DNA of 64,000 nucleotides, from the IMG/VR virus record IMGVR_UViG_3300025141_000055, positions 18,134-82,133 of that record. One strand, written 5' to 3'. Positions within the stretch are counted from its first letter, which is position 1. Each line of letters begins with the position of its first letter. Shown here piece by piece: positions 15,269 to 41,009 of the stretch. The position numbers and the translations under genes were made by a program. The notes under the pieces are model-generated. The model ran no database searches. It worked only from the letters and a program-made list of their open reading frames with translations, and was not told the origin of the DNA. Origin of the DNA: a virus.

Positions 15269-15520
15269 ATGGACCCTCAAGACACTTGCGTTCGTGTGGG
15301 GCTTTCCCTAGAGGATGATTTAACCCTAACGAGAGTTAAAAAGAAGGCTTATTCATTAAAGGGAGACGCGCGTGATCAATATCTTTGGAAAACCATCTTT
15401 AGATTCGTATGTCGAGAGCGCGCGTATAAATCAGTCATGCAAGAGATCGGCGTGGTCGTCGATACTAACGTTGATCTTTTTGGTGACGACGAGCGGTATA
15501 ATAACATCGACGCTGCTTAG
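15269..15520 (+). CDS. nblA: NblA-like phycobilisome degradation adaptor (copy 1)
   Basis: Gapless match to the recalled Anabaena NblA pattern LSLE...D....FLxK....VxRExxY: LSLEDDLTL...DQYLWK...VCRERAYKSVM. Confidence 0.6.
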   Translation: MDPQDTCVRVGLSLEDDLTLTRVKKKAYSLKGDARDQYLWKTIFRFVCRERAYKSVMQEIGVVVDTNVDLFGDDERYNNIDAA

Positions 15521-15524
15521 TCAG

Positions 15525-16163
15525 ATGCCCATCATCGGTAAGTTAGTGAGAGAGGCCCTACCGTGGGTACTCAAAGCAGCTGCTTTCGAAGGTGCGCGGC
15601 GTGTAGTTACCGGTGAGGAACCCTCTCCAGTTGTACCTCCTCAGACTGAAGGCGTTCCTAACACACCCCCCATCAAGGAGAGTTACTTACCTGCCATATC
15701 TCCCAGTGAACGGCTGTGGCTAGATACTATTTCATTTATGGAGGGGACTTGGAATTCTAAGAAGAATGCACCGGAATATCGGATGATGTTTGGAGGAGGG
15801 CTTGCACCTAATCTTGATATTCATCCCGATAATCCAATTACTAGTGGACGTCATACGAGTGCAGCAGCCGGAGCTTATCAATTTATGCCTTTTACCTGGG
15901 ATTCTGCAGCTAAAGCTTTAAAGTTACGTTCTTTCGGCCCTGTGGAGCAAGACCATGCGGCCCTTCGTCTGCTGAGGAACAGAGGGGTAGATCCGAGTGT
16001 AGACCCCATCTCTCCCGACACCCTTCATTTAATCGCCGGCGAGTGGGCGGCGTCTCCTCTACGCTCCGGCGCCAGTTATTATGCTCATTTGGGACAGCGG
16101 GCTAAAGCTCATAACGTTATCTTCGATTTTGCGAGAAGACGGCGTCAACAATTAATACCTTAA
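15525..16163 (+). CDS. lambda-R-type lysozyme / lytic transglycosylase
   Basis: WLDTISFMEGT, AAAGAYQF..TW, F.P..QD.AA, EWAA; start reassigned to the ATG at 15525. Confidence 0.8.
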   Translation: MPIIGKLVREALPWVLKAAAFEGARRVVTGEEPSPVVPPQTEGVPNTPPIKESYLPAISPSERLWLDTISFMEGTWNSKKNAPEYRMMFGGGLAPNLDIHPDNPITSGRHTSAAAGAYQFMPFTWDSAAKALKLRSFGPVEQDHAALRLLRNRGVDPSVDPISPDTLHLIAGEWAASPLRSGASYYAHLGQRAKAHNVIFDFARRRRQQLIP

Positions 16164-16207
16164 GATTAGAACTAATAGTCTAAAATAAGGTATACACGAG
16201 GCGTAGA

Positions 16208-17065
16208 ATGTCCGACGTTATTTGGGGTGACATCGCCCCGGGCTCTATAGGTGGGATGGACTACAGCAATACACCCGATTGGAACGTCCCCTACGATACT
16301 GGCTCGGACCCTGGTTGGACAACTAGTCCTTTCGGCAACACTCCTTTTTCGGGGGATGTTTTTAGTGGAGACCAGTTGGGAGGCCTTATGGATAATAATC
16401 CGTGGACTTCTTCTACGGGTACTGATTCGAGTTCGGGAGGAGGTATATGGGGAGCGCTTACAGATAATGCACCTGATATTATTCGTCTAGCAGGTTCTAT
16501 TTTTAGTGGTCTTGGTGGGAATGATAATGGCGGAGGAGATCCTAGTGCCGGTTTCTGGGGTCAGGAGTATCAGCGACAAGCTACCGAAGAACTCGATAAT
16601 CGAGCCGCTGCTACCTACGATCAAATTAAGGATATTATGTCCGATATTAGAGGACTAACCGGAGTAAGTACTCCGGATGCGGTTCAAAACTATATGACTC
16701 GTTTTGATGACACTATGGATCGCTTCCATACTATAGGTCGTCAAGATGTAGAAGGGTTTAGTCCTCATATTTCGGAGGAGTATGATCGCCTAGGAAACCG
16801 TATAGATGCCGCCCGAAAGCAATATAGCCTGATGAGAGATCCAGCTTTTAAACAAGCTTATAAGGATCCTGATGCGGTTTCACCAGTTAATACTCAATCT
16901 ATTAAGAGCACTATGACTCTGGGACCCGAGTTTGCTCATCACTATGATTACACTGATGCTGCTACTCAAGCGATGATCCGTGGTAGAGAGGAAGCACTTC
17001 CAGCAGCAGCGAATTTCTATGCAAATGATGCCGCTGTGCGTGAATTAATGAATTATGGTGTCTGA
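16208..17065 (+). CDS. putative internal virion protein
   Basis: G/D-rich N-terminus, helical C-terminus; TAAAAT box at 16181. Confidence 0.5.
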   Translation: MSDVIWGDIAPGSIGGMDYSNTPDWNVPYDTGSDPGWTTSPFGNTPFSGDVFSGDQLGGLMDNNPWTSSTGTDSSSGGGIWGALTDNAPDIIRLAGSIFSGLGGNDNGGGDPSAGFWGQEYQRQATEELDNRAAATYDQIKDIMSDIRGLTGVSTPDAVQNYMTRFDDTMDRFHTIGRQDVEGFSPHISEEYDRLGNRIDAARKQYSLMRDPAFKQAYKDPDAVSPVNTQSIKSTMTLGPEFAHHYDYTDAATQAMIRGREEALPAAANFYANDAAVRELMNYGV

Positions 17066-17370
17066 TGAGCGATTTCGAACGTTCCGGCCCAGAAAGGCGA
17101 GCTGAAAGCCACGTCAAACGTCGCCTACATCATGTAGACCGCAATCCGCACTTCTTTCGCTTCGCTGGAGAATTATTTAACACTGCGAAGAAGCACAAAC
17201 ACAGAGAGGATATCCGGGAAGAAAGAGAAAGAATGCAAAGAAAAAGACCTGTCGGAATAGGTTTTGGTGAGAATGATAATTATGGGCCAGATGACTCGTG
17301 GGACACTGCTGAGGAACTTAAATATAAACCCGTCCCAGAGTACTATACAAAGCAGAGAAGTGAGTGGTAG
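17065..17370 (+). CDS. hypothetical charged protein
   Basis: TGATG coupling to the previous gene. Confidence 0.6.
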   Translation: MSDFERSGPERRAESHVKRRLHHVDRNPHFFRFAGELFNTAKKHKHREDIREERERMQRKRPVGIGFGENDNYGPDDSWDTAEELKYKPVPEYYTKQRSEW

Positions 17371-17896
17371 CCTCTTGGTAATTATTAATTGAAGGCAAAT
17401 AAAAGATAAAACCGAATACTTTGGAGCTTCTTACTTTATTAAGTTCTTTATTATCTATCAATAGTTTGGGGCGCTCCTTCAGAATACAAATAGGGAAGTC
17501 AAACCCTATTCGTTGCGTAGAAAGAAGGGCCACTTCCGAAGAAGTAATAAATATAATTGCCTGATCAAACTCTTTCCGTAACCACTTTTCATAAGCTAGT
17601 TCTAACCATACACGTTGACTGGATTTTTTAAATCGAGTTGTTTTTTGAAAAAGACGCGTCTCTTTGGGTTGTTCATCCCCTGCTAGAACATCCCGGGGAG
17701 GGTATAAATAAAGATTTTTGGCTTTCCAGGTTTGTTTGAGGCCATTATCCCTCCAAGTAAAGTACTTGGTGGCCCCCACAACCTTATTAGCATGGGGACT
17801 AGAAGCCGGATCTAGGTCAATTTCCCCACCAAAAAAGGTCGTGGTGGTTCCTATTACATCAAAAGGGGAAACAAAATCTCTAGATAATAAGACCAT
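17318..17896 (-). CDS. phage DNA adenine methyltransferase-like protein with an altered catalytic motif
   Basis: IDLDPASS..AN, DNGLKQTW, DQAIIF and PICI...R match phage N6-MTases, but the NPPY position reads YPPR. Confidence 0.65.
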   Translation of the reverse strand: MVLLSRDFVSPFDVIGTTTTFFGGEIDLDPASSPHANKVVGATKYFTWRDNGLKQTWKAKNLYLYPPRDVLAGDEQPKETRLFQKTTRFKKSSQRVWLELAYEKWLRKEFDQAIIFITSSEVALLSTQRIGFDFPICILKERPKLLIDNKELNKVRSSKVFGFIFYLPSINNYQEATTHFSALYSTLGRVYI

Positions 17897-18299
17897 TGGC
17901 GTACTCGTCTATTTTTTTATTGCATTCTTCCGCATCCAAAAGATGGATGGCAACACCCGCATCATGGATCATGGCGATAAGAGCAAGATCGGATTCATGT
18001 TCTTTTTCGATAATTTTGACGACGCGTTGGAACAACTCTTCTGCTTCTTTATTCATCACTTCTTGAGCAACCGCTATATCCGCTTCGAGGTCGGTGATCG
18101 TGAGATACCTGCTTTTATCCGGTTCTTCAGGGTTAAATACCAGGATACCCTTTCCTCTTACTCCTTTATGGTCAAAATATAGTTTCGTAATATCGGCCAG
18201 AATCATCCGCATCGTGCCAGCGGCGACCATATTATCGGTTTCACTTTTTCCAAAGAGCTGTTTAATTAATAATGTGGCATTCCTAGAAGGATCAGACAT
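17880..18299 (-). CDS. hypothetical protein
   Basis: Likely start MSDPSR, coupled to the upstream stop. Confidence 0.65.
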   Translation of the reverse strand: MSDPSRNATLLIKQLFGKSETDNMVAAGTMRMILADITKLYFDHKGVRGKGILVFNPEEPDKSRYLTITDLEADIAVAQEVMNKEAEELFQRVVKIIEKEHESDLALIAMIHDAGVAIHLLDAEECNKKIDEYANGLII

Positions 18300-18618
18300 G
18301 TTGAAAGTTACTCCAAGCGGAATTAATGATGGCGTGCGGGTCATAGAGGAATTTAGAGCTATTACGCTCCTCTGGATCTAGTTTACAAAAGTGCTTTCCT
18401 TCGACAAGCCCTGACTTACCTCCGGAAGCAATACCCTGGTGAATTAGACGATCTAAAGCCACAGCGGGGATGTTTAAGCGTTGACACATCGACCGCTTCG
18501 AGAGAAAAGCCGTAGTGCGGTGTTCTTTATCGCGTTGAGCCGCTAATAATTGCAGTGAGACATCGATACCAGCGAGAGAATCGCGGATAGCTTTTATTTC
18601 GCGAAGAGAGGTGTCCAT
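18292..18618 (-). CDS. putative DNA-binding protein
   Basis: Likely start MDTSLR; FLSKRSMCQRLNIP...LVEGKHF resembles an HTH/winged helix. Confidence 0.55.
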   Translation of the reverse strand: MDTSLREIKAIRDSLAGIDVSLQLLAAQRDKEHRTTAFLSKRSMCQRLNIPAVALDRLIHQGIASGGKSGLVEGKHFCKLDPEERNSSKFLYDPHAIINSAWSNFQHV

Positions 18619-18649
18619 GTAATAAAAATAAAGGAGGGGAGAGTTTATC

Positions 18650-19075
18650 TCAGGCCAGTAAGCGAGCGGCCTGGGTGGTGAAATCGTGAGGCTCCTCAAT
18701 AAGGAGAATAATAAGCTTATTTAATTTTTCTTCGACGTCGATAGTATTTTCGCTCTTCAAAGTGAGCCAGTAGGTATAAGCACTTAGTAAATGATGGTGA
18801 GTTTGCTTCGCCTTTAGGGCTTGGAGCCTCCATTTTTCAAAGTCTAAATTGCTGTTATGGCGTGAACTACCTATTTTTAACTCTAATTCTCTTATTTTTA
18901 TCTGAGTTTCTATATCATCGAGGATAAATTGAGTGGCACTTACTTTAGCCTTGCAATCCGCCAACGAGGAGGGTGGCTCATTATCGGTATAAATCCACAA
19001 AGGGAGGTTTGGGATACGATATTTTTCCTCCCATAGAGGAGTCTTCTCCTCATTACTAGTTTCACGCAACGGCAT
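18650..19075 (-). CDS. hypothetical helical protein
   Basis: Likely start MPLRE, overlapping the end of the upstream gene. Confidence 0.6.
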   Translation of the reverse strand: MPLRETSNEEKTPLWEEKYRIPNLPLWIYTDNEPPSSLADCKAKVSATQFILDDIETQIKIRELELKIGSSRHNSNLDFEKWRLQALKAKQTHHHLLSAYTYWLTLKSENTIDVEEKLNKLIILLIEEPHDFTTQAARLLA

Positions 19076-19463
19076 GGAGTTCGGTGAGTATTTCTTCGAT
19101 AAATAAGTTGAAATCGCCATTTAAACAATAAAGGGAGTGCTGTTCGAACCGGATGTTAACTACTAACCCAAGGCGAGCTAACTTGCGAAGATGCTCACGG
19201 GTCGTATTGGGAGTTTGTCCTAGAGCCGTGGTTAACTCTTTTACGTCCGTTGGTTGTAAAAATTTTAGCTCCTCTATAAGATAACCAATTTTTTCGATTT
19301 CCCGTCTACGGATCGCACGCACTGTATCGATCTGACGGAGAGATCTAAGGAAAGCTGATCGCGCAAAAGAAGTTGGGTCGTTTTGGAAGAAACTCCCTGC
19401 GCGGCTAGCTTCTGAATGTAATGACGAATGGGCTGAGAAACTTTGGCGGCAGGACTGCGACAT
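19062..19463 (-). CDS. winged-helix HTH protein (start uncertain)
   Basis: TDVKELTTALGQTPNTTREHLRKLARLGLV...YCL is ArsR-like. Confidence 0.65.
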   Translation of the reverse strand: MSQSCRQSFSAHSSLHSEASRAGSFFQNDPTSFARSAFLRSLRQIDTVRAIRRREIEKIGYLIEELKFLQPTDVKELTTALGQTPNTTREHLRKLARLGLVVNIRFEQHSLYCLNGDFNLFIEEILTELHAVA

Positions 19464-19963
19464 ACATATAAATGATAAGGGTTAATGCAGTGCTCATCAC
19501 AGCACTTACTGCGCACGAAATGTTTATAATTTAAGTTTTTCTTCCAAAAGGTTTCATAAACAAAACGACGAGTGCGAATACTGCGACCTTCCCGCACATC
19601 TCGGCAATATCCCAGATCATCGGGTAAATAGAGGTGCTTCTCTTCGCTAATAAGGGGTCGATTCCGTTCTAACCAGGCCCAGAGATGACCTGTTTTTCCT
19701 CGGGCATTCTCAAACTCCGATCTACACACCTCACAGGCGGGAATGAGGTTGGTAGGGAGCCTGACTTTCTTTAAATCAGTAAGAGGAATGATCAAGGGGT
19801 CAGAACGCTCACAGCTGCATCGCCATACGCAACACGAGGAGTATTCATCCACTCGCCAGTGACCTCGTACCGAGGTGGCTAAAGCCCTTTCGGTGGTGGG
19901 GTGATGAGCTTCAGTTGTATCAAGGAGTCCTAAGAGGACGACAGCACGATCAGAAAACGACAT
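19274..19963 (-). CDS. zinc-binding HNH-derived protein with C-terminal HTH
   Basis: WRCSC...CEVC plus VRSKCCDEHCINPYHL; C-terminal LSVRSIQCV helix. Confidence 0.55.
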   Translation of the reverse strand: MSFSDRAVVLLGLLDTTEAHHPTTERALATSVRGHWRVDEYSSCCVWRCSCERSDPLIIPLTDLKKVRLPTNLIPACEVCRSEFENARGKTGHLWAWLERNRPLISEEKHLYLPDDLGYCRDVREGRSIRTRRFVYETFWKKNLNYKHFVRSKCCDEHCINPYHLYVCRSPAAKVSQPIRHYIQKLAAQGVSSKTTQLLLRDQLSLDLSVRSIQCVRSVDGKSKKLVIL

Positions 19964-20371
19964 GAGGAGGTTGTCAACCTATGCGCAGTGTATCAGATGG
20001 GACACGCGAGTGAGAGGAAGAAGCACCTAATGACATAGAACGCACACAAGGGCACGAAGCTCAAAACTCCTATTTTTTCTATATCCTTCTAGTGAATATT
20101 TTCGACTCTCGTTATTCCCAATTTTAAAGCTATTTAAAAGTTTTTAAACTGACGCAAAGTGAGACCTGTTTTTAAAATGGATAACCACTAAATTTTATAA
20201 GGTCCATTTAAAGCACTCAGAGGATATTTATTTAAAAGACTCTGCCTAACGCAAATTATCTGTTATGAGGTAGTTTTAAACAAGAGTTGTAGCTTAATGA
20301 ACTTACAAAGCATCGTGGGCATTGCTTACTATAGACGAAACCTTTAAGATAGAAGTAAATAGTGTATTACC

Positions 20372-20545
20372 ATGAACAAGAACGTAGCTGAGCCATCAGA
20401 AAAAATTACTTGGAAAGCTTTGCGTCTTCGAGCTTCTAAACTGGGGATTCCGGCCTGGCAATTAGCTGAAAATTTACAAGATGAGGAGCTCTGGGAGAAT
20501 ACTGAACTCGGAGTAAAAAATCGGCTAGAGTACTCAGACAAATAG
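20372..20545 (+). CDS. small hypothetical protein (57 aa, not in ORF track)
   Basis: MNKNVAEPSEKITWKALRLRASKLGIPAWQLAE... Confidence 0.5.
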   Translation: MNKNVAEPSEKITWKALRLRASKLGIPAWQLAENLQDEELWENTELGVKNRLEYSDK

Positions 20546-20597
20546 CTGTCTCAACTGAGTTAGAATCAAACTTGGGGGTGCATACTAAAATTGATAC

Positions 20598-21749
20598 ATG
20601 GCACTTGCACCTTGTCCTGTTCATGGATCCACTTATCGGGCGCTACATGAACACAGTTTCAGAGGCATCATCGATGTCATTGATGAAATCATTACGACGA
20701 TAAGTGGCGTGGGTACTGTTTCTTATGCAAAATGCCCCATCGGGTACACCCATAACTTCGAGGGGATAGTTCGTGCCCTTGAGGACTTAAACCTTACGGC
20801 GAGTGGAATCCAGACCTCTCCTATTTCCGAGGGAAGCATTCTGCCCGGTTCTGGTATTACCTTTACTCCAAGTGGAGACGCTCATATTATTGCTGTTAAC
20901 TCCCTGGGTATGGGAGGTGTTGGGGTTACTTATTCCGGCGGAATTGGGGCCCAATTCATTGTTATATCGGGGGCCGATAACATAACTAATGCGGTTATAA
21001 GTGGTGTTGTTGCAGGTCCGGGGATTACGGTTACACCTAGCGGCAGTAGCGCCATTGTCTCCACTAATATCAGTGGGCAGGGCTCTGTAGACGTTAGTTA
21101 TAACGCGGGGATAGGTCTTATCTCAGGTCAAGAAAATGCCAACGTTGTAGGTGGGTCCGGTATTAGTGTTTATGCAAGTGGTGTTTCCAAAGTTATTGAT
21201 GTAGGGGTTCTAGGTGGGGCAGATATAGGAACTAGTTATTCTGGTGCTTTCGTAACGGTGGAGAGTACCGGGGGTGGACGCGCAACTCTTTCGGGTAGTC
21301 CCGGAACTGGTTATAAAGCCGGGTCACTCTGGTTTGATACCAATGAAGGACGTCTCTTTGTTTATGCGTCTGGTAATGGGATTACTAAACCTGATTGGTA
21401 CATCACTAATGCCGAAGCTTTAGCGATTAAGAGTGAGGTTCCTCCATCTGGAACTGGCGGTAAGAACGCACCCCCACGTGACGGAAGCATTTGGTTCAAT
21501 ACCCTCATGGGTAACCTGTTTATTTATGATGCGTCCTCTAGTGGTTGGTACGAATCTGCTCCGGCCCGCACGCCTTCTTACAGCGCTATTGCTCCTACGA
21601 ATGCTGTGGATGGCTCTCTCTGGACTCGATCCACTGACGCTAATCTGACTGTTTGGAATGGTAGTAACTGGCAGGATGTAGTGGCTAGTGGCAATGATCC
21701 AGGTCAGAGCGAGGGCGAAGTTATCGGTCTGATTATGGGACTTAGCTAA
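20598..21749 (+). CDS. tail fibre / stalk protein
   Basis: Repeated GxGITV beta motifs and three GSLW/GSIW modules; C-terminus SEGEVIGLIMGLS. Confidence 0.7.
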   Translation: MALAPCPVHGSTYRALHEHSFRGIIDVIDEIITTISGVGTVSYAKCPIGYTHNFEGIVRALEDLNLTASGIQTSPISEGSILPGSGITFTPSGDAHIIAVNSLGMGGVGVTYSGGIGAQFIVISGADNITNAVISGVVAGPGITVTPSGSSAIVSTNISGQGSVDVSYNAGIGLISGQENANVVGGSGISVYASGVSKVIDVGVLGGADIGTSYSGAFVTVESTGGGRATLSGSPGTGYKAGSLWFDTNEGRLFVYASGNGITKPDWYITNAEALAIKSEVPPSGTGGKNAPPRDGSIWFNTLMGNLFIYDASSSGWYESAPARTPSYSAIAPTNAVDGSLWTRSTDANLTVWNGSNWQDVVASGNDPGQSEGEVIGLIMGLS

Positions 21750-21871
21750 TGACTAAAGAGAAGGATACCAATCAGATTCTCCCAAAGCTCAAAAAAACGC
21801 GACAGGGGAACGGCCGGAATAGCAAAGCATCTCATGGAAGAAAAAAGCCCCGTGGACAAGGCCCGCGCTAA
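21749..21871 (+). CDS. small basic phage protein (40 aa, not in ORF track)
   Basis: KKTRQGNGRNSKASHGRKKPRGQG resembles a common aquatic-phage peptide; TAATG coupling. Confidence 0.65.
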   Translation: MTKEKDTNQILPKLKKTRQGNGRNSKASHGRKKPRGQGPR

Positions 21872-21898
21872 AGTTAGAGAGTAGAATTAGAGATTATT

Positions 21899-22303: not shown

Positions 22304-22341
22304 GCGGTGTAGAATGGGAACTAAATCTACGGCTGTTATCG

Positions 22342-25406: not shown

Positions 25407-26507
25407 ATGACTAAGGGTTTCGGCGGTTTTACCGGTCAAGCTAATGTCCCTACCATTACTTATGCGAGTGGGTGTTGGACATCGGGTACCGAGATTTATT
25501 ATCAAAGAGCAACGCTGAATCAGTGGCCCACGGCTCCTGTTGAGCCTCCACAGTCCAATGTAGGTGAATTAGTCTTTGTCCTGGCGAGTGGTACTCGTGA
25601 CCAACTGATGATGTCAGATGGTTATATCTGTGCGAGTGGACAAGCGATCAGTCGCTCTACTTATTCGGGACTATTCGATACTTACGGGACTCTGTACGGA
25701 GTTGGGGATGGTGCTACTACGTTTAATGTACCTAACTATACCTTCGATAACACCGGTGATAATGGGGGTTATGGTTACTTTAGAACTACAACTAATTCGG
25801 GAGCCACCCTTGCTGAATTATCGGGAGTAGGGGTTCTTCCTCACCATACTCACACTGCATTGGGGGTATATGGTACCGCTTCCTGGGGGACTTCGTGTGG
25901 GTCAGCGGGTGGTAACAATAGAAATATGAACCCTGGCGCGTCTAACATGACTACGGGAACTACGGGAAGTGCAGGAGGAAATCAGCTAAGGCACAGACAG
26001 GTATATCCCATGCTTGCTACGAAGGAGTCTCATTATCCCATTGGGTGTTTGATTCAGTATTTGCTAGCGACAACTGAATCCAATTTTGTAGGTAATTCAA
26101 ATATCCCAGTCGATTATGTTATTCCTAGTGGGCAGCCGATTAGTAGAACGGAGAATGCCACTCTCTTTAATCAGTTTGGTACTCACTTTGGCGTGGGAGA
26201 TGGGTCTACTACCTTTAATATTCCTGATCTGAGAGGGGCTTTCACGAGAGGGACGGCAATAGCACAAACATCAGGAGCTTTACCTAGTGGTTACGTTTTA
26301 GACGATGTAGCGGAACACGAACATTATGTCTCGTTTTACAATGTCAACAACACTAATGACTGTAATGGTCCCGCTTCTTACAATGGCACGATGGCGGCTC
26401 CGGCGACCGGCGGCGCCTCTGTAGGGAGTGCAGGGGTTGATAATAGAATAGACAACATTACTGTCGTTTATCTTCTCAATGTCGATAATACTGGCGAAGC
26501 GTCTTAA
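25407..26507 (+). CDS. tail-collar protein A1 (two collar domains)
   Basis: GQAISRSTYSGLF..YGT.YG.GDG.TTFNVP and ISR...LF..FGT.FG.GDG.TTFNIPDLRG; HTH/HEH metal-binding motifs. Confidence 0.8.
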   Translation: MTKGFGGFTGQANVPTITYASGCWTSGTEIYYQRATLNQWPTAPVEPPQSNVGELVFVLASGTRDQLMMSDGYICASGQAISRSTYSGLFDTYGTLYGVGDGATTFNVPNYTFDNTGDNGGYGYFRTTTNSGATLAELSGVGVLPHHTHTALGVYGTASWGTSCGSAGGNNRNMNPGASNMTTGTTGSAGGNQLRHRQVYPMLATKESHYPIGCLIQYLLATTESNFVGNSNIPVDYVIPSGQPISRTENATLFNQFGTHFGVGDGSTTFNIPDLRGAFTRGTAIAQTSGALPSGYVLDDVAEHEHYVSFYNVNNTNDCNGPASYNGTMAAPATGGASVGSAGVDNRIDNITVVYLLNVDNTGEAS

Positions 26508-27084: not shown

Positions 27085-28146
27085 ATGTCTAAGCATTACG
27101 GCGGCACAGTTAATAAAGAAGCTTCTAGCTCTAGCGCTGCTCCTGGTGCCTGGATTGGTAGGAATGTAACTCGTCAAATGCGAATAAACGAGTGGCCTCT
27201 TTCATTCACGGGATTATTGATGAATGAGGAGGGGGATTATGCTTTCGCTATTTCGAGTGGTGTAAGGGATACTAATTGTGCATCCCCAGATATCGGTGGT
27301 AAGTTTTTTGAGACTACTGGAGCTGATGTTAGTCGTACCGATTATTCTGGCTTATTTTCAGTTCTAGGGACTACGTATGGTGTAGGAGATGGTTTTAATA
27401 CTTTTACTCTCCCTGACACTGTCGGTGAATATACATATACCAAGACGCTTACTGCTTCGGGGACCCCGTTAGCTTCATTATCGGGTACTGCTGTTTTACC
27501 TCACCATACTCATACAGTTACTGGTGTATATGGTACCGCTTCCTGGGGGACTTCGTGTGGGTCAGCGGGTGGTAACAATAGAAATATGAACCCTGGTACT
27601 AATGGCTCAAACGTTGGGGCACAGGGGTCACCGGATGGTAACCACGGGAAACATCGTCAAGTGTGTCCCATGATTGCCCATAGTTATGGACCTATCCCTA
27701 TTGGCTGCGTCTTTCCCTATACCTTACCCATCATTGACCAAGATTTCGCAGCGTCGAATCTTCCCGAGCATTGTGTTATAGCGAGCGGTCAGGATGTTAG
27801 TCGTACTATATATGAGGGGTTGTTTAAACACGTTGGTACCTTATATGGTTCGGGAGATGGCTCGACGACTTTTGGTCTACCTGATTTTAGAGGAATTTTT
27901 CTCAATAATACCGGGGCTCAACCTTCCGGGATCTCGGATCTACCCTCAGGTTATATCGTAGATAGTTATGCCAACCATGATCATGCGGGTAGGGTATACA
28001 ATGTCAACAACACTAATGACTGTAATGGTCCCGCTTCTTATACTGGTGCCTTAGCTGCGCCGGCAACGGGTAATTCTTCTGTCGGTACGACTACTGAGAA
28101 TAGACCGGTTAATGTATCTGTTATCTATGCTCTTAGACTAGCGTAG
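27085..28146 (+). CDS. tail-collar protein A2 (paralog of A1)
   Basis: Same two-collar architecture; ends ENRPVNVSVIYAL. Confidence 0.8.
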   Translation: MSKHYGGTVNKEASSSSAAPGAWIGRNVTRQMRINEWPLSFTGLLMNEEGDYAFAISSGVRDTNCASPDIGGKFFETTGADVSRTDYSGLFSVLGTTYGVGDGFNTFTLPDTVGEYTYTKTLTASGTPLASLSGTAVLPHHTHTVTGVYGTASWGTSCGSAGGNNRNMNPGTNGSNVGAQGSPDGNHGKHRQVCPMIAHSYGPIPIGCVFPYTLPIIDQDFAASNLPEHCVIASGQDVSRTIYEGLFKHVGTLYGSGDGSTTFGLPDFRGIFLNNTGAQPSGISDLPSGYIVDSYANHDHAGRVYNVNNTNDCNGPASYTGALAAPATGNSSVGTTTENRPVNVSVIYALRLA

Positions 28147-28788: not shown

Positions 28789-29361
28789 GTGGAGAATTTT
28801 ATTAGACGGTATCGGGTGGGTCCCGAGTACTGCGGCCAGATTATTAAATGGTTTGAGGATAATCCCCAGCTTCATGAAGCGGGAGTTGTAGGTACCGGGG
28901 GCTCCGTAGGGGAGGTAGTACCTACGGTTAAACAGTCAACGATTATTCAACTTTCTCTTGCGGAGGCTTACGAAATCTCGGAAGATTTTCGAGCTGTTCT
29001 TGACCATCTCTGGGATTGTGTTGCCACCTACACCATGGAGTTTGAGGAACTGACGGGGATGAATTTTTCGATGACCGAGAAGTTCATGATTGCCAGGTAT
29101 CTCCCTGGTGAAGGTTTTTTCTCTCATCATTGTGAAAGGACCGATGTGTGGTCTGCCAACAGGCTGCTCGTGTGGCTTGTTTACCTAACTAGTAATGGAG
29201 CTGAGGGAGGAACTCATTTCAGATACTTGGATCATACCGAGCATGCGGAAGCAGGTAAGCTATTAGTTTGGCCTCCGGATTTTACTCATAGTCATCGGGG
29301 AGTGACTGACGAGAAAACAAAATATATTCTCACGGGTTGGTACGATCTTATAAATTTCTAG
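28789..29361 (+). CDS. 2OG-Fe(II) oxygenase
   Basis: RYLPGEGFFSHHCE, RLLVWLVYL, GGTHF, WPPDFTHSHRG, KYILTGW. Confidence 0.9.
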   Translation: MENFIRRYRVGPEYCGQIIKWFEDNPQLHEAGVVGTGGSVGEVVPTVKQSTIIQLSLAEAYEISEDFRAVLDHLWDCVATYTMEFEELTGMNFSMTEKFMIARYLPGEGFFSHHCERTDVWSANRLLVWLVYLTSNGAEGGTHFRYLDHTEHAEAGKLLVWPPDFTHSHRGVTDEKTKYILTGWYDLINF

Positions 29362-29365: not shown

Positions 29366-30010
29366 ATGGGACAGACTCCTCAGTATCAACACTCTACGGC
29401 TACATCGCCTTTAACTCATTTCATTCGTACTTTCGATAATCTTCTTCCTGAACCTTTTTGTGAGGCGGTAATAGAGGAGTATAGCGAGCCCAATGGGTTG
29501 TGGGAAGATTCCTTCATCTACCATGAATTGGAGTCAGGAGATAGTGTGAAGGATGACACGTGGAGGACATCGTCACAGCTCAATATCTCGTTAGGTAATG
29601 TTATTAATGTCAACCCAGGTCATCGCCGTCAGTTAGATATAGATCTATTTAGTTACGTAGGTCAGGCGCTTAATGCTTACATGAACATTTTTGGTGATGT
29701 AAGTGTTCGTAAAGATAATGGGTATACATTATTGAGATATGGTCCTAATGAGTTTTATAAGGAGCATTATGACTATGTCAGTCGAGAGCAAGCTAAAGGT
29801 GCAGACGCCGGAGAGGTAAGAGAGTTAACCCTTCTTATCCAGTTAAATAGCGATTTTGAGGGAGGAGGTTTAACTTTTTTCAATGACACTTTCCGCATCC
29901 CTGTTAGTACTGGATCGGCTACTATTTTCCCCTCTTCTTTTATGTTTCCTCACCAAGCTCTTCCTGTAAAAAGCGGAACCCGTTATGCGATTGTTTCGTG
30001 GTTTCACTAA
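29366..30010 (+). CDS. 2OG-Fe(II) oxygenase (prolyl 4-hydroxylase-like)
   Basis: LLRY....YKEHYD, LN.DFEGGGL.F, FPSSFMFPH...PV.SGTRYAIVSW. Confidence 0.9.
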   Translation: MGQTPQYQHSTATSPLTHFIRTFDNLLPEPFCEAVIEEYSEPNGLWEDSFIYHELESGDSVKDDTWRTSSQLNISLGNVINVNPGHRRQLDIDLFSYVGQALNAYMNIFGDVSVRKDNGYTLLRYGPNEFYKEHYDYVSREQAKGADAGEVRELTLLIQLNSDFEGGGLTFFNDTFRIPVSTGSATIFPSSFMFPHQALPVKSGTRYAIVSWFH

Positions 30011-30050: not shown

Positions 30051-30425
30051 ATGGTCCATCAGGAATCAGATTTAGTGTTCACTCTCCAGTGTTTGCAAAA
30101 GAGGACAGCTAGAAAAAGATTCCGACGAATAATATTAGATGAGTGGGGAGGATGTGCTTATTGTGGGAGACATAAACCCTCCAGTGTGGACCACGTTATA
30201 CCGCGCGCTAAAGGAGGAGGGACTGTTAAAAGCAACCTCGTGGCGTGTTGCGGTGAGTGTAATTTATGTAAGTCTGATCTAGACTGGGGTGAATGGTTTA
30301 GACAACAGGATTTCTGGTGTCCCGATAGGGAAGTGAAAATATTAGAGTGGCTCCACCAGGCAGAAGACGTGAAGGCCCTAGAGAAAGAACAACCCTGGGT
30401 TATTCCTCTCTTAACCGCGGCGTAG
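30051..30425 (+). CDS. HNH endonuclease
   Basis: CAYCG...DHVIPRAKGG...NLVACCGECNLCK. Confidence 0.9.
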   Translation: MVHQESDLVFTLQCLQKRTARKRFRRIILDEWGGCAYCGRHKPSSVDHVIPRAKGGGTVKSNLVACCGECNLCKSDLDWGEWFRQQDFWCPDREVKILEWLHQAEDVKALEKEQPWVIPLLTAA

Positions 30426-34191: not shown

Positions 34192-34223
34192 GATCCTAAA
34201 CTTATTAAATAATAAGGACTCTT

Positions 34224-34463: not shown

Positions 34464-34472
34464 ACTAGACTG

Positions 34473-34985: not shown

Positions 34986-35128
34986 TGCAGACTAATCAAG
35001 CCGATACGGTTCGCATGGCCGGCATGAGGCTGGGAATGAAGCCTGCCCACATGCAGGAATGGGTCGGGAATCCTCGCGAAATCACAGCTCGGCTCCGGTA
35101 CCAACAGACTTACACCAACTCTCCTTGA
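34985..35128 (+). CDS. small protein (47 aa, not in ORF track)
   Basis: GTG overlaps the previous TAG; VQTNQADTVRMAGMRLG...RLRYQQT. Confidence 0.5.
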   Translation: MQTNQADTVRMAGMRLGMKPAHMQEWVGNPREITARLRYQQTYTNSP

Positions 35129-35149
35129 AGTTACCGCCCTGTGTCAAGC

Positions 35150-35716
35150 CTAAGGAACACTAAAAGGAGTGTAGAGGCACCACCCCGTGGCAATGTATTT
35201 ATCTCCAATATTTGGACATACTCCCCTATGGGTATGGGTCCAATAAGCGGGCCATACAGCACCGACACCTGCTTTGGCTTCTAAGATGGTGTCTTGGAGG
35301 ATGAACTCTGTCCCACACTCAGCATTGTTTAAGTAAAAAATCCACGCGAGCATTCGGTAGGGGTAGGTCGTGTTAGGCATGGGAGCATACTCCATATGTG
35401 CAGCGGAGTAGCCTTCTCCATCTTTGTAGTGCTGGAGATTGTATGTGGGAGAAATGTTGAACTGATACCCTTCTTCTAAGATGGGATATTTATCTACATA
35501 CTGATCCATTAGAGTTACCATAGCGGGTAGAAGAATAGCGTTATAAACCAGATGAAGAGGGTTGCCCAGTTCACAAGCAATATCAGTAGAGACTTTTTGG
35601 TCGCTTTTTACTTCGTTCCCTGCTACGTGTCCCGGTATCCTTAGGTCGTCGTTATTAAAGTGCTTAATAATCGTGTCACATTCTTCGGAGGTTAAAACTT
35701 TGAAGGTCTCAATCAT
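35150..35716 (-). CDS. 2OG-Fe(II) oxygenase
   Basis: NLQHY..GEGY..AHME, RMLAWIFYLN, GTEF, WPAYWTHTHRG, KYIATGW. Confidence 0.9.
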   Translation of the reverse strand: MIETFKVLTSEECDTIIKHFNNDDLRIPGHVAGNEVKSDQKVSTDIACELGNPLHLVYNAILLPAMVTLMDQYVDKYPILEEGYQFNISPTYNLQHYKDGEGYSAAHMEYAPMPNTTYPYRMLAWIFYLNNAECGTEFILQDTILEAKAGVGAVWPAYWTHTHRGVCPNIGDKYIATGWCLYTPFSVP

Positions 35717-35722
35717 GTTCTC

Positions 35723-36289
35723 TTAAGGGTTGACCTTATTCCAGGGGTCGACTCCTTTTTGAGGGTCGGAAGGAGTAAGGTTCGCTTTTTGTTGGAGTTG
35801 CAATAATCTCATTTGAGTAGCGAGAGAATCCCTTTCGGCTACAAGAGGCCCAATTTGAGCTTGAGCCCAGTTCTGTGCATTATTTGTAAGCTCATCTAAT
35901 ACCGCTGCTGTATGTGGAAATACAAAGGCGACCCCCACTCCTTGTTTGGTATGGATCTTACTGCCTCCAGTCTGTTCGGCCAGGTTGGTTAAAAATCCGT
36001 GGGCTTGTTCAGTAGTTATACCGGCAAGACATCCCAATTGAATGGGATCAATCAGGCCGCGATTGGTTTCGTAGAGAGCGGTAAATGTAGTAGTGACACG
36101 ATCATTAGCCTCTTTCTTTTTCTCACTTTTTCGTCTTGCATCTTCAACGATTGAGGCACCTCCACATATTCCTCCGGCAAAAGCTAAACCGGCTCCCGCA
36201 AACTGAGGAGAAGTAAAGGCCAGAGCGCAACTAACTCCTGCTCCACTGAGGATCGCTAGTATTATGTGAGGGTTGATTCGCTGGGTCAT
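35723..36289 (-). CDS. membrane protein (two TM helices)
   Basis: Two N-terminal hydrophobic helices. Confidence 0.6.
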   Translation of the reverse strand: MTQRINPHIILAILSGAGVSCALAFTSPQFAGAGLAFAGGICGGASIVEDARRKSEKKKEANDRVTTTFTALYETNRGLIDPIQLGCLAGITTEQAHGFLTNLAEQTGGSKIHTKQGVGVAFVFPHTAAVLDELTNNAQNWAQAQIGPLVAERDSLATQMRLLQLQQKANLTPSDPQKGVDPWNKVNP

Positions 36290-39038
36290 GTTTGATAAAA
36301 GCGGTGTCCCAATCTTTCGATTGGGTGTCTTGAGCGAACTCTACAGGGGATGGTAGCCTGTCGGGTCCTTTTGCTGCTCGGTCTGAGTGTAAATCATATG
36401 CCTTCAGACGTAACCCCTGGATCGAGGGAATACCATCTTTAAGTACCGTTTTACATCCGGGAATCTTGAGAATGTTTGTGAGTGCCTCTTTAGTTCTTTC
36501 TACGAACCGATGCTTGGCCGCAGGTTTATAACCACAGGCTTTGCAAAAGTTGGCATAGCTAGGGTATAGAGCACCATAAGCATTAGCAACATATAAACCT
36601 TTTTCACTTTCATCCGTAGAAGGTTTCCTGGCTCCTTGACCCACCGGCGTGGCGGAATTGGGAGCATAGAGACAACAATCATTAAGCCATGCAACAAATT
36701 GATTGTTGAATAGGAGGGCATCAATATTGGTTCGGTTGAGGGAAGGCACATGCTTGGTCGGGTTAACCAAGATGTCTCTCATTAGATCATGATCGAGAGT
36801 TAGAGCCCACCTTACGATTCCACTCATCTCATTAGCGAATACTCCTTCAATGCGATCTTCAAAAACACTAATCAGTTCTTTACGATCACTCGGAGGCACG
36901 ACGTGATCCATCACAATGGTCAGCCGCCTTCTTTCGAGGCCGCTAGTGGAATCGTTAGAAGTGATGTGTTCATTACTAGCGATACAGACGAGACATTCTG
37001 GTTTAAAACTAATTATTTCCTTACCATATTTGCGTTCGGCTCGCAGAGTATCAGCAGCGGACGTAAGTTTTTTCAGTACGTCCATCCGTTTGTTGTAGTT
37101 GCTCTCGTCGGTTAGAAGAACTAATCGTTTACCTATGAGGTTATAAGTCTCAAATTTATTGGTTTCTATAATTTCGAGGCTGGAGGTGTGAGTGCTGTGG
37201 AATCCAGCTAGTGCAACTAATAGTTGTTGCATTGTCGATTTACCTGTACCCCCTGGTCCTACAAGGTGCAAGAACCTTTCTCCCGCGGTATGTCCCGTGA
37301 GGATGGCTCGGGCGAAGGCGCGGATGAGAATGTCTTGATTTTTACCGAGAGAACTCTTTATCCATTTGAGAAAGTTAGGGCATTCAGAGGAACTATCGAA
37401 GGGATAGGAAAGTTTGTGTCTCAAGAACAGATCTTTATGTTTGCCTTCTTGAAACTCCAGAGTATGTGCGTTTAAGACACCATTTGTAAAAGGGATAAAT
37501 CCTCTGGACTGACTCCATATACTCTTACGTCCTCCTTCGGCCGACCGCAGGAGTTTTGCTTTCAGTATTTGGTAAACACTATTAATCGTGGCCGCGTTGT
37601 ATTTAGGAAGAACCCCTGCTGTGACAAAGGAGTCAAGGGCTTTGACAATTCTTCTTTTAATGTGTTGTTCATCTTGCACATACCAGATGTCATAGTCCAA
37701 GTGGTAGTGGTAGAACTGGTCAAGATAACTGTCGTAAACAAAGTCATCACCTTGATTAGCGACAATGATGTCAGCTACGTCGTTCTCGGAGAACTGACGT
37801 TTTTGACCTTGTCCTTTCTGTAAACTAATTAATTGAGAGGGAGTTGAAGGAGTAGACATTGAAGTGAGGGGAGGTGTTGATGTTGATCTCTCTGTGTTCG
37901 CTTTTGTTGCTACTTGCAGACTGAATATAGAAGGGTCAGCTACTGAGTTAGCTGCTTCTTTTTTATGTTTATAAAATGCATCCTTCTGTTCGGAGGAGGC
38001 GTATTTTTCAAAGGTGGACCGACTGACCTTTTTTAATTTTTTCCAAATAGCTAAAGCTCCAAGATCGGAGGCTAGAGCAATGGCGGGCTGGAGATCTTCT
38101 ACTCCACGGATGGAGTTGAGGATACGAGAGAATTTGCCATCGAGGTCATGAGGGTACTCATAGATGCTATAGAATGCATGGTGTGCAATTGTCAACGGGG
38201 ATTCCTGTACAGGTATCTCATTGATACGTAACCAGTTTGCCCACCCGATCAGTTCCTTGAAGACAACCGCCATGGTCGAACTCCGGTCCTGCACTTGGCC
38301 ACCATCGAGTACTGATCGAACAGTGTTGGAGACAAGTTTCTCCAGATCCACCCCATCGGTGCGTACGAGAATCCCTGAAATCATTTCTGCAGGGTCTGAA
38401 GCCAGGGAAGAGGGTTCGACCGGGAGGTCTAGGTAGACGAGCTGAGCCTCGTTGACTTTACTAGCCGGGATAAATTTGCCAGGAGTAGCGAAGATCGCCT
38501 GTTGACTCTTAGGACCATAAAATAAGTTGGGTACAGTCGTGGCTCTGGGGTCTGAACCCGGTATCTGGCTATATATCTGCTTGGTAAACCACTGGTAGAA
38601 AGCCGGATCAATTACATGTTGTTCCAGGCCGAATACCAAGCGAAAACGAGGCCACTGAGGCGTGGTAGATGGAGAGAGGTAAGCAAGCGTGAGATATTTC
38701 TGACAAATATCGAGATTGAGGGCTTCTTCAGGGGTGAGTTCTTGTTGTTGAACTTTGTTCCCTTTTTCGTCTTTGTAAGGCGCCTGGTTGTCTATATCAA
38801 CAATAATGAGTCCTGCTTGTGTAACTCCTGTTTTATCCGCTTGTCTTCGACCCCCAAGCATGTGCCACGCACAGAGGCCGTGACAGTGCTGTAGATGATT
38901 AGAAAGCTGAGTTACATCGAGTTCTGAAGCAACCCAGTTAGAGTTAAAAGCTTGGAAGTTACCTCCTTCGGCTATTTTACCTGTCTGGGGATGGAGAAAT
39001 GATGATACTACTTCATTTATAGAGCAAACAAACTTCAT
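36231..39038 (-). CDS. DNA primase-helicase (AEP-like N-terminus + D5-like SF3 helicase)
   Basis: IIVDIDN, PRFRLVF; IPFTNGVL; Walker A GPGGTGKST; LLTDE; ASN; RRRL. Confidence 0.9.
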   Translation of the reverse strand: MKFVCSINEVVSSFLHPQTGKIAEGGNFQAFNSNWVASELDVTQLSNHLQHCHGLCAWHMLGGRRQADKTGVTQAGLIIVDIDNQAPYKDEKGNKVQQQELTPEEALNLDICQKYLTLAYLSPSTTPQWPRFRLVFGLEQHVIDPAFYQWFTKQIYSQIPGSDPRATTVPNLFYGPKSQQAIFATPGKFIPASKVNEAQLVYLDLPVEPSSLASDPAEMISGILVRTDGVDLEKLVSNTVRSVLDGGQVQDRSSTMAVVFKELIGWANWLRINEIPVQESPLTIAHHAFYSIYEYPHDLDGKFSRILNSIRGVEDLQPAIALASDLGALAIWKKLKKVSRSTFEKYASSEQKDAFYKHKKEAANSVADPSIFSLQVATKANTERSTSTPPLTSMSTPSTPSQLISLQKGQGQKRQFSENDVADIIVANQGDDFVYDSYLDQFYHYHLDYDIWYVQDEQHIKRRIVKALDSFVTAGVLPKYNAATINSVYQILKAKLLRSAEGGRKSIWSQSRGFIPFTNGVLNAHTLEFQEGKHKDLFLRHKLSYPFDSSSECPNFLKWIKSSLGKNQDILIRAFARAILTGHTAGERFLHLVGPGGTGKSTMQQLLVALAGFHSTHTSSLEIIETNKFETYNLIGKRLVLLTDESNYNKRMDVLKKLTSAADTLRAERKYGKEIISFKPECLVCIASNEHITSNDSTSGLERRRLTIVMDHVVPPSDRKELISVFEDRIEGVFANEMSGIVRWALTLDHDLMRDILVNPTKHVPSLNRTNIDALLFNNQFVAWLNDCCLYAPNSATPVGQGARKPSTDESEKGLYVANAYGALYPSYANFCKACGYKPAAKHRFVERTKEALTNILKIPGCKTVLKDGIPSIQGLRLKAYDLHSDRAAKGPDRLPSPVEFAQDTQSKDWDTAFIKHDPANQPSHNTSDPQWSRS

Positions 39039-39086
39039 GGTGTGCTGTGACGTGCATTGACTATACCGTATTCCACTAATAGGGGA

Positions 39087-39866
39087 TCAGATGTTGGGAT
39101 GGAGCTGATAGTAGTTCTTTACTACTTCAAACCACTTCTCTTCATCTTTCTCCACCGCCTCAGGTCCGAATGTAAAAACCTGAGTGTTGAAGGCTTTCAC
39201 TGCGGTAGAAACGATAATCTGGGTTTTATCAATTGTAATCCCCAAACAATTTTCCGCTGCTGCTTTGTATGCCGCAAGTTGTAAACGGGTTTTCTTCGTC
39301 TTAAAAGCCCCGGAGATAAGGGCTTTACGTATACTGTCTTCTAATTTTTGCTCTTTACGTGGGAATTTAGCTGCGTAGGGGCCGACGCTTGTTTTAAAAT
39401 CGGCCAAAATAATTTGAGCGTTTTTGTCCATATAAATAAGGTCGCAGCAGCCCGCGTACCCATACCCGGTTTCCGCATCAAAGTAATAAAGGCGCCCTAC
39501 ACCATCATCACCCACAAACTTCGACCAGCGGGGTTGGTTAAAGGGTTTTTCGGACCAAAGTATCCGTCCCCCATCAATTAAGTCATCGATGATTTCAGGC
39601 ATTCCATCCCAATAAGGTTGATAATCCTCGGGGGGAATAACCCGTAGTCCTTTGATGTAGTTCTCTACACTCCCATGGATCCATGTCCCCCTCTCGGCAG
39701 CCTTATCTGCGACGCCGGGATTGAGCTTATTCCAGTGAGCTAGTTTTTTCCTCTGCTGTTCTGTTTGGGAGGAGCTCAGAATAGAAGTTACAGAAGGGAG
39801 AGGTTTAACCACCCCAGGACATATGTAATGTCTTCTGCCATCTATGGTGACCCTGGTGGTAGACAA
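39087..39866 (-). CDS. PD-(D/E)XK exonuclease
   Basis: LPSVTSIL, RGTWIH, SE, YAGCCD, ADFKTS, QLAAY. Confidence 0.85.
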   Translation of the reverse strand: MSTTRVTIDGRRHYICPGVVKPLPSVTSILSSSQTEQQRKKLAHWNKLNPGVADKAAERGTWIHGSVENYIKGLRVIPPEDYQPYWDGMPEIIDDLIDGGRILWSEKPFNQPRWSKFVGDDGVGRLYYFDAETGYGYAGCCDLIYMDKNAQIILADFKTSVGPYAAKFPRKEQKLEDSIRKALISGAFKTKKTRLQLAAYKAAAENCLGITIDKTQIIVSTAVKAFNTQVFTFGPEAVEKDEEKWFEVVKNYYQLHPNI

Positions 39867-39891
39867 AAAAGTAAGTGCAGACGGCCTGATA

Positions 39892-40212
39892 CTAGAACGA
39901 ATTTATGAAATCGTTGGGGTCATTAGGGAGTTTAGTCCCCACCTCACGGGGTTCAATAAAGAACTCAGATTTTTGATAGGCGTATTCCTTATCTCGTTGT
40001 TCAAGATCCCCCATTAGACATAAGGCGGCTGAATAAGCCTCCGTGGTTATTTCTGCGCACTCTTCAGCGGAGCGAGTAGAACCATCGGGGGCGACACATT
40101 CGGTTAAAAGTTGTTGTGCTGCTATCAGAGCAGTAATTTTTTCCAACTTAAGGTTAGTCTCCTTAAGCTGAGTACCGATTTCTTCGAGAGCATCAAAGAG
40201 GCGTTTGCTCAC
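39892..40212 (-). CDS. hypothetical coiled-coil protein
   Basis: ORF track. Confidence 0.6.
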   Translation of the reverse strand: MSKRLFDALEEIGTQLKETNLKLEKITALIAAQQLLTECVAPDGSTRSAEECAEITTEAYSAALCLMGDLEQRDKEYAYQKSEFFIEPREVGTKLPNDPNDFINSF

Positions 40213-40738
40213 TGTTTGGTATCGGCGGGTTAGGCCAGCCTACTTCGTATTCGATCATAGTACTAGTAGACGCATCTGGCTGCTTTTTAAAGACAAACCA
40301 TGCAGAAGTCACCGAGTCTTTTAATTGTTTCCCATCTCCTCTAAAAGAAGGACGAGGGCTAAGGATTTTTAGATTCGTAAGAGAAGCGCCTTTAAGGAAA
40401 CGTTCCCTACGTCGAGTGGGCTCAAGAAAAGTAAGGCGATCTAGGATGATTAACCCTTGTTTGGCCACGTCATGTCCATACTCCGTTACCCATGTTGAGA
40501 GGTCACCCATTCCTTGTGTGATGGCTATAACCCAGTCGACACCCCGATGTTGTTCCCACCACTCTGGTTCGGAGAGACTGTTTAGATCAAAATTGCAGGT
40601 TAAATCCGTTAGGCCCGCTTGGCGCACTTGCTGTGCTAACTGGCGATCAAAGTCGGTAGGGAGAAGGATGGATCCTTCGCAGATGCCACTATCCCGAATA
40701 GGATTAAAAATGAACTTAGGGACTTGATAAAAACCCAT
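40193..40738 (-). CDS. methyltransferase-fold protein lacking SAM-binding and catalytic motifs
   Basis: FY..P, DWVI, RLTFLEP..RR, RPSF, D....AWFVF scaffold of small phage MTases; EPxAG reads LPTDF and NPPF reads ITQG. Confidence 0.6.
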   Translation of the reverse strand: MGFYQVPKFIFNPIRDSGICEGSILLPTDFDRQLAQQVRQAGLTDLTCNFDLNSLSEPEWWEQHRGVDWVIAITQGMGDLSTWVTEYGHDVAKQGLIILDRLTFLEPTRRRERFLKGASLTNLKILSPRPSFRGDGKQLKDSVTSAWFVFKKQPDASTSTMIEYEVGWPNPPIPNSEQTPL

Positions 40739-41009
40739 GCCGGAGTTAAGTGAAGAATTTATAGACGTGGTCAGGGCTCATATGACGTATGAGCAAGCTT
40801 TTACTCATAGGGTTTTTACAGATTGTTTTTTCGAGCTTAGTCCAAAAGATCAAGAAGATGTGCTTGCTATTGTCTATGCTAACTATCTCATCAGAGGAAG
40901 ATTATTAGCCGGAATCTTAGAGTGGTCCGCGAAGGAAAAGGTAGTGATCCCTAATTTTGGGGATCTATTAGCTCCCGGAATGATTGGCATAAAGAAAGAG
41001 GTACCCTAG
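40737..41009 (+). CDS. nblA: NblA-like protein (copy 2)
   Basis: Gapless match to the recalled NblA pattern EQxFxxRxF......S....D.L...Y.....R: MTYEQAFTHRVF...LSPKDQEDVLAIVYANYLIR. Confidence 0.6.
   Translation: MPELSEEFIDVVRAHMTYEQAFTHRVFTDCFFELSPKDQEDVLAIVYANYLIRGRLLAGILEWSAKEKVVIPNFGDLLAPGMIGIKKEVP

Follow-up and report, generated by a model that had tools for sequence, protein, structure and literature searches.

NblA is a small adaptor that sends the light-harvesting antenna of cyanobacteria to a protease. Two nblA-like genes in S-EIV1-related marine phages have already been published (10.1101/325100, 10.1101/494369). The available text of Flores-Uribe et al. (10.1101/325100) describes four genomes of about 86 kb from a lineage of uncultured marine phages (80-86 kb) whose closest isolate is S-EIV1; two different nblA copies occur in three of these genomes. 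Nadel et al. (10.1101/494369) reported that one protein, G1, complements a delta-nblA mutant of S. elongatus and that the other, G1b, does not, that docking gave no support for a G1/G1b heterodimer, that G1b may pair with host NblA, and that both G1 and G1b score poorly against the Pfam NblA family. Described here is a second such S-EIVl-related lineage, represented by the window (the whole stretch of DNA analysed, 64,000 nucleotides), which covers bases 18134-82133 of the 82,133-base IMG/VR virus record IMGVR_UViG_3300025141_000055 (CheckV completeness 100%). The two open reading frames (ORFs) in question, numbered on the window, are:

15269-15520, plus strand: copy 1, ORF of 83 amino acids (aa), NblA-like
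40737-41009, plus strand: copy 2, ORF of 90 aa, divergent member of a viral NblA clade

The two genes are a conserved pair of this S-EIVl-related marine lineage. By homology and predicted fold copy 2 is an NblA, and copy 1 is probably a remote homologue of NblA. They are likely to be two separately evolving helix-loop-helix proteins of the NblA type that serve as two adaptors differing in stage or substrate, and not as an obligate heterodimer. The original prediction, made from the letters alone, had described both ORFs as NblA homologues keeping complementary halves of the NblA signature. Both ORFs and the quoted motifs are present in the translations. The family assignment holds for copy 2, on its homologues, profile and fold; for copy 1 it is only probable, below threshold and at the level of the family.

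The DNA comes from an uncultured, S-EIVl-related cyanophage, probably a marine one: it carries cyanophage genes, its large terminase (TerL, 507 aa) shares 54.3% identity over 93% of its length with the TerL of Synechococcus phage S-EIVl (next matches <25%), and the sequencing runs with near-identical DNA are labelled marine metagenome; no RNA run is listed among these. The phage origin supposed in the original prediction is thus borne out by an 82-kb virus record with cyanophage genes and a TerL 54% identical to that of S-EIVl. Like the G1/G1b lineage, the window phage is an uncultured marine phage of ~80 kb with S-EIV1 as nearest isolate, with two divergent nblA-like genes, poor Pfam scores and no close cyanobacterial counterpart. 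In the published genomes the two nblA-like genes fall in different clades, talC and a class II ribonucleotide reductase are present in 4/4, psbA and an integrase in three, and the DNA polymerase is split in all. The window phage differs in that neither talC (PF00923) nor psbA (PF00124) occurs in its complete relatives (0/5 for each), that Pfam finds neither domain within the window or within the genome's first 18 kb, and that the family-A DNA polymerase PolA (Pfam, window) is one unsplit ORF of 629 aa. Copies 1 and 2 were compared with G1 and G1b by description, and may belong to the same clades or to others.

S-EIVl itself has neither copy 1 nor copy 2 at E ≤ 10, and tblastn with both window proteins against 50,697 phage records gave no match at E ≤ 1. 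In the same records megablast found no match to the 8-kb stretches around the two genes, and PolA has no relative above 28% identity. A search of PHROGs with the two proteins gave no useful match. No other S-EIV1-like phage with nblA came up in literature searches that paired nblA with S-EIVl or S-EIV1. The available text of Nishimura et al. (PMC5332604) names hli and ptoX, but not nblA, among the genes of the genus-level group of S-EIV1. The family motifs CRERAY, CRERAF, ANYLIRG and RDQYLW and the name S-EIV have no occurrence in the supplement of PMC12695635.

Copy 2 has relatives at 60 viral loci, comprising 34 distinct proteins with a typical length of 77-80 aa. A word-index search returned only a 98% identical twin; exhaustive phmmer searching added three distant relatives, and a further phmmer match, the repeat protein P0108, was rejected as spurious. 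The relatives of copy 1 are strongly conserved, 77-91 aa long, occur in viral records only, and comprise 45 viral loci; besides the window protein there are 102 cluster representatives, which are 62-82% identical. A pattern scan covering 185,579 prokaryote species, one genome per species, confirmed no relative of copy 1. All relatives of either protein listed in the source databases are without a name or are called 'hypothetical protein'. The median ratio of nonsynonymous to synonymous substitution rates (dN/dS) is 0.14 for copy 1 (60 of 171 pairs with usable dS) and 0.23 for copy 2 (18 of 105 pairs). Between the window genes and their relatives, synonymous sites are saturated (pS ~0.75-1.0), and the proportion of nonsynonymous differences (pN) ranges from 0.20 to 0.35 in copy 1 and from 0.35 to 0.50 in copy 2. 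Both are real genes under purifying selection.

The assignment of copy 2 is carried by several lines of evidence. Its sole Pfam match is PF04485 (E 0.18; residues 17-55 on model positions 3-41), which at 12.8 bits stays below the cut-off of 25, and a six-frame PF04485 scan of the whole 82-kb genome marks copy 2 as the only match. Five complete related genomes carry a relative between the same two flanking genes, and these positional orthologues pass the cut-off in three of the five (30.7, 25.5 and 25.5 bits); the orthologues of the other two, which are the most distant genomes, have no PF04485 match at E ≤ 10. Within the family, 18 of 24 members match PF04485 at E ≤ 1 (best E 1.2e-7), and hhalign aligns the family to the Ma-LMM01-type phage NblA over 49 columns (Prob 90.4%, E 1.4e-6). 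The 24-sequence profile of copy 2 has four matches in the PDB at E ≤ 10, three of which are all three solved NblA structures (1ojh at E 0.0021), with profile positions 14-61 aligned without gaps to chain positions 7-54 of 1ojh; PDB searches with the single sequence and with a 4-sequence profile gave no NblA, so that the 24-sequence profile was needed. A copy-2 orthologue, used as a tblastn query against the phage records, matched only nine of them, in every case at a Microcystis-phage nblA locus (E 0.2-0.9, with 38% identity over 47 aa).

The AlphaFold model of copy 2 (predicted local distance difference test, pLDDT, 84.1) has helices at residues 6-14, 18-31, 36-67 and 74-77. Compared with 48,161 chains, it places NblA chain 1ojh_A at rank 1 (Z 6.1, root mean square deviation, rmsd, 1.6 A over 52/52 residues), 2q8v_A at rank 2 (Z 5.5) and 3cs5_A at rank 9 (Z 4.6, rmsd 1.4 A over 48/48 residues). 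In absolute terms all these Z values are modest, as expected of a 50-residue hairpin, and no unrelated chain stands above 1ojh_A. A point on the other side is that Foldseek at E ≤ 0.001 found nothing for this model in the PDB.

For copy 1 the evidence lies with the family and not with the window protein. PF04485 is the commonest Pfam match of the family, being found below threshold in 23 of 32 members (best E 0.0043; the next family is matched by 12). Six-frame PF04485 scans of three related genomes mark exactly two places in each, the copy-2 orthologue and the copy-1 orthologue, the latter with 15.8-16 bits (cut-off 25) and E 0.0016-0.0019 over model positions 2-47 of 50. The copy-1 family profile, searched against the PDB (177,635 distinct sequences), has 1ojh_A NblA as its sole match at E ≤ 10; the E-value is only 1.3, and profile positions 10-58 align without gaps to chain positions 5-53. 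The ungapped alignment of both proteins to the Anabaena NblA, as given in the original prediction, was thus reproduced with the two family profiles on 1ojh_A. For copy 2 this likeness clearly exceeds chance.

Searches with hidden Markov models (HMMs) were made in an in-house test database of 13,116 sequences, made up of 186 proteins and, from every locus retrieved, all six-frame ORFs of 40 aa or more (12,930). The first 15 non-self matches of the copy-1 HMM are all copy-2 proteins (E 0.044-0.51). The copy-2 HMM in turn ranks 79 Ma-LMM01-type NblAs and then 100 copy-1 sequences ahead of the first unrelated ORF (E 6.4). With a combined NblA HMM, 137 of 154 copy-1 sequences come ahead of the first unrelated ORF (E 2.5), the best of them at E 0.0091 and 15.9 bits. 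The median score of the 133 distinct copy-1 sequences under this HMM, 11.1 bits, is reached by one of 13,300 residue shuffles; no shuffle reaches the maximum of 15.9 bits, and reversed sequences score at most 5.4 bits. Because the shuffled and reversed controls fail, the signal is not compositional. The canonical NblA reference is narrow, being of the Ma-LMM01 type only with members at least 74% identical to one another, because a scan of prokaryote species genomes with Ma-LMM01 NblA, made in search of a cyanobacterial reference, gave no match.

The model of copy 1 forms a helix-loop-helix (residues 14-29 and 32-60). It superimposes on 2q8v_A with Z 4.5 and rmsd 2.8 A over 53/53 residues, and its residues 10-61 on residues 5-56 of 1ojh_A with Z 4.2 and rmsd 2.5 A over 52/52 residues. 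The identity to 1ojh_A, 21%, is the highest among the best 50 matches listed, and the register of copy 1 against NblA is identical in the sequence and structure alignments.

Several observations weigh against an NblA assignment of copy 1. The window protein has no Pfam match at E ≤ 10, is one of the 17 sequences which the combined NblA HMM ranks lower than the first unrelated ORF (E 11), and like the other copy-1 sequences is not found by the Ma-LMM01-type HMM alone. With hhalign the family gives 0.65% over only 11 columns against the Ma-LMM01-type NblA, 10.5% over 33 columns against the copy-2 family and 8% over 50 columns against the combined NblA set. The pLDDT of the model is a mediocre 66.2. 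The fold match is also non-discriminating, because 2q8v_A and 1ojh_A stand no higher than ranks 20 and 35, within 1.3 Z of the best chain (Z 5.5), and 19 non-NblA chains score equally well or better. Foldseek at E ≤ 0.001 against the PDB and BFVD found nothing for this model, and the ESM Atlas gave no NblA lead. The many concordant matches, moreover, amount to few independent observations because the copy-1 sequences are close kin (effective number of sequences, Neff, ~1.8).

These points would be explained if copy 1 had no kinship with NblA but were a small helical protein serving the tail/lysis module, for instance as lysis regulator or assembly factor, its likeness to NblA being convergent or coincidental, and if the phage had one NblA only. 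Its lack of any significant match (no Pfam match, 16 bits for the family against a cut-off of 25, at most 10.5% with hhalign, E 1.3 in the PDB), the commonness of helical hairpins, its tight linkage, in relatives as in the window phage, to a lysozyme-like gene, and a conserved extension with an acidic tail that canonical NblA lacks all agree with such a protein. A chance likeness accounts poorly for a signal that depends on residue order (one shuffle in 13,300 at the median; best reversed score 5.4 against 15.9 bits), that is reciprocal, with NblA as the next-nearest family among the 13,116 sequences, and that meets NblA as sole PDB match, as commonest Pfam match and as closest in identity among the 50 structure matches listed, in one shared register. 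This alternative is therefore regarded as somewhat unlikely, and copy 1 as probably NblA, because its sub-threshold signals are order-specific and reciprocal and keep one register.

In their predicted architecture both proteins resemble NblA (PF04485; 1OJH of Nostoc PCC 7120, 2Q8V of T. vulcanus, 3CS5 of S. elongatus) in a helix-loop-helix core of ~50 residues, a first helix starting with a motif of the L-[ST]-L-E type and a conserved arginine in helix 2; the copy-2 model fits whole NblA chains with an rmsd of 1.4-1.6 A. Unlike NblA, the phage proteins are longer (83 and 90 aa), carry conserved C-terminal extensions, and in the window do not reach the Pfam cut-off. Past the NblA core the extension of copy 1 (residues 59-72 of the window protein) has a conserved G-V-x-I-D-T-N-I-D-I-F followed by an acidic tail, and that of copy 2 (residues 63-79) a conserved L-P-S-F-G-D-L-L.

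Phage-borne NblA is also known from Ma-LMM01 / MaMV-DC and S-TIP37, and the copy-2 family aligns to the Ma-LMM01 type. Each of these phages has a single nblA, in contrast to the two of the window phage, and the nblA of Ma-LMM01 is host-like, whereas no host-like relative of copy 1 was found among the 185,579 species genomes. Synechocystis PCC 6803, with NblA1 and NblA2, likewise has two divergent NblA paralogues in one genome. Its two genes, which are adjacent, differ in arrangement from those of the window phage, which are 25 kb apart in different modules.

The motifs on which the original prediction relied are E19-Q-A-F-T-H-R-V-F27 in copy 2 (EQxFxxRxF) and L12-S-L-E15 (LSLE) together with V47-C-R-E-R-A-Y53 (VxRExxY) in copy 1. 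From these it was proposed that the proteins form an obligate asymmetric heterodimer in which copy 2 would give the ClpC-binding N-terminal motif and copy 1 the phycobiliprotein-binding C-terminal helix. The motif pattern of both window proteins is as described, both genes are kept in nine of ten related large records and in the window genome, and Synechocystis requires an NblA1/NblA2 heterodimer (Baier et al. 2014, as cited in the available text of PMC7966870). The two copies also resemble each other as little as had been stated (BLASTP E 8.3, 3 aligned residues). The families tell against the proposal. Mean column identity is 0.87 in helix 1 and 0.92 in helix 2 of the copy-1 family, where helix 1 is invariant in the alignment, and 0.61 and 0.65 in the copy-2 family. 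Because each family conserves both helices, a division into complementary halves is not supported by the alignments at family level.

Positions L51 and K53 of PCC 7120 NblA are reported in the available text of PMC12695635 to mediate phycobiliprotein binding. At L51-L52-K53 the copy-2 family has the consensus I-I-K and window copy 2 has I60-L61-E62; because the consensus keeps I-I-K, the motif loss in window copy 2 is a feature of one sequence and not of its clade. In window copy 1 the L51 and K53 positions are V56 and Q58. A hydrophobic residue is thus kept at the L51 position in both window proteins; the replacement of the lysine (Q58; E62) is a point against reading them as NblA-type proteins. 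The loss settles nothing, because the experimentally active NblA of S-TIP37 also lacks this lysine and has T66 there (PMC12695635, available text).

The genes and their neighbours bear on the same question. The neighbouring features are:

14263-14832, plus strand: minor-tail-protein-like gene upstream of copy 1, marking the late structural module (phrog_356, E 4.1e-16)
15525-16163, plus strand: lysozyme/endolysin-like gene, its ATG 4 nt past the copy-1 stop (phrog_90, E 6.2e-19)
39087-39866, minus strand: replication-module exonuclease gene near copy 2 (phrog_298, E 7.7e-24)
40193-40738, minus strand: methyltransferase-like gene of 181 aa, head to head with copy 2 (phrog_799, E 7.9e-7)
41081-41935, minus strand: conserved gene of 284 aa, convergent with copy 2, function unassigned (ORF list)

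Copy 1 lies in the tail/lysis module between the minor-tail-protein gene and the lysozyme/endolysin-like gene, which is also downstream of copy 1 in relatives L055-L057. Copy 2 is a lone plus-strand gene among minus-strand genes of a replication block (exonuclease, primase-helicase, PolA), and the convergent 284-aa gene adjoins it in all five relatives examined. Its closeness to an exonuclease gene is shared with the nblA of T7-like cyanophages (available text of PMC12695635). The distance between the copies is ~25 kb, and they belong to different modules and not to one operon.

Ten related large records were examined, nine chosen for copy 1 and one for copy 2. Copy 1 is present in 10/10 and copy 2 in 9/10, and the sole miss is a record rated 87% complete. 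This co-inheritance favours a joint role of some sort. The separate modules and the published precedent, a two-nblA marine phage in which one gene is active alone and docking lends no support to a G1/G1b heterodimer (10.1101/494369), argue against an obligate pair. Together with the two conserved helices of each family and the I-I-K consensus of copy 2, they make the obligate heterodimer unlikely.

Two stage- or substrate-specific adaptors are the most likely arrangement because the copies sit in different modules. If they work as the NblA of cyanobacteria and cyanophages does, each protein would form dimers that link phycobiliproteins, or other proteins of the host, to the ClpC-ClpP protease, and the antenna would be dismantled and its amino acids released during infection. 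Copy 1 and copy 2 would most likely differ in the stage of their production or in their substrates. Action at different times, an option also named in the original prediction, fits the positions of the genes, with copy 1 in the tail/lysis and copy 2 in the replication module.

Pairing with the host protein is another option: one of the two phage proteins, likelier the more divergent, could combine with host NblA and redirect or poison the host adaptor. Such pairing was suggested for the inactive G1b by Nadel et al. (10.1101/494369), several divergent nblA genes occur in marine Synechococcus (PMC12695635, available text), and DNA near-identical to that of the window phage comes from runs labelled marine metagenome. 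Copy 1 has no close host counterpart, however, since no relative of it was confirmed in the 185,579 species genomes, and host pairing is judged quite improbable. A related and more speculative arrangement, to which an equally slim chance is given, is a lineage-wide, co-inherited asymmetric NblA pair in which early-module copy 2 and late-module copy 1 would heterodimerise, or would each pair with host NblA, and so shift the substrates of ClpC as infection proceeds; the C-terminal extensions would then be extra docking motifs without counterpart in cellular NblA.

The lineage adds two further viral clades that are not named in the source databases, one of them so divergent that Pfam misses it. 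Viral NblA speeds cyanophage infection, directs phycobilisome degradation and cuts host light harvesting at ocean scale, according to the available text of PMC12695635. Confirmation of copy 1 would mean that profile searches underestimate both the spread and the variability of NblA-type adaptors in cyanophages. As the pair is retained in nearly every genome of the lineage, it offers a good system for the question why some phages need two.

Copy 2 and the 181-aa methyltransferase-like gene overlap head to head by 2 nt at their start codons (CATG, window 40736-40739), and this overlap is kept in 33/33 distinct copy-2 loci, of which 3 run off their contig. It leaves no intergenic promoter region, so that the 5' leader of each gene lies inside the coding sequence of the other, and mutual antisense or transcriptional interference between the two genes is possible. 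Scans for promoters and terminators in the surroundings of the two nblA-like genes gave sites no commoner than in shuffled sequence.

A further ORF at 55956-56237 on the minus strand (93 aa), which begins MSLEDLTH, was considered as a third NblA-like gene and rejected, its alignment to the combined NblA profile being weak, gapped and at chance level (E 2.5-7).

Pfam content of the window includes two tail-collar proteins, a phage lysozyme, a D5-type primase-helicase, PolA, an HNH endonuclease, two 2OG-Fe(II) oxygenases, a thioredoxin, a MoxR-VWA pair and a beta-barrel described as 'cyanophage outer membrane protein-like'. The first 18 kb of the genome contain a terminase, glycosyl- and methyltransferases and a C5 DNA methylase (Pfam). 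Further features of the window are:

25407-26507 and 27085-28146: pair of tail-collar-domain paralogues with one small gene between them (Pfam)
28789-29361 and 29366-30010: adjacent pair of paralogous 2OG-Fe(II) oxygenases (Pfam)
30051-30425: HNH endonuclease gene, after the oxygenase pair (Pfam)
50179-52946, minus strand: MoxR-type AAA+ ATPase (bpMoxR domain, E 1.5e-56) adjoining a VWA-domain protein, in the early/replication region

At the ends of the window genome (1-400 against 81734-82133) an exact terminal repeat of 20-399 bp was looked for and not found; relatives G001 and G002 fall in the class with direct terminal repeats. The terminase coding sequence of S-EIVl (KJ410740, 54080-56620) has 2,541 nt. 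The 507-aa TerL of the window phage matches it in two pieces across 2,442 nt, which suggests that the S-EIVl gene has an insertion of ~1 kb, perhaps an intein, without counterpart in the window phage. The MoxR-VWA pair is chaperone-like and unusual in a phage of such size.

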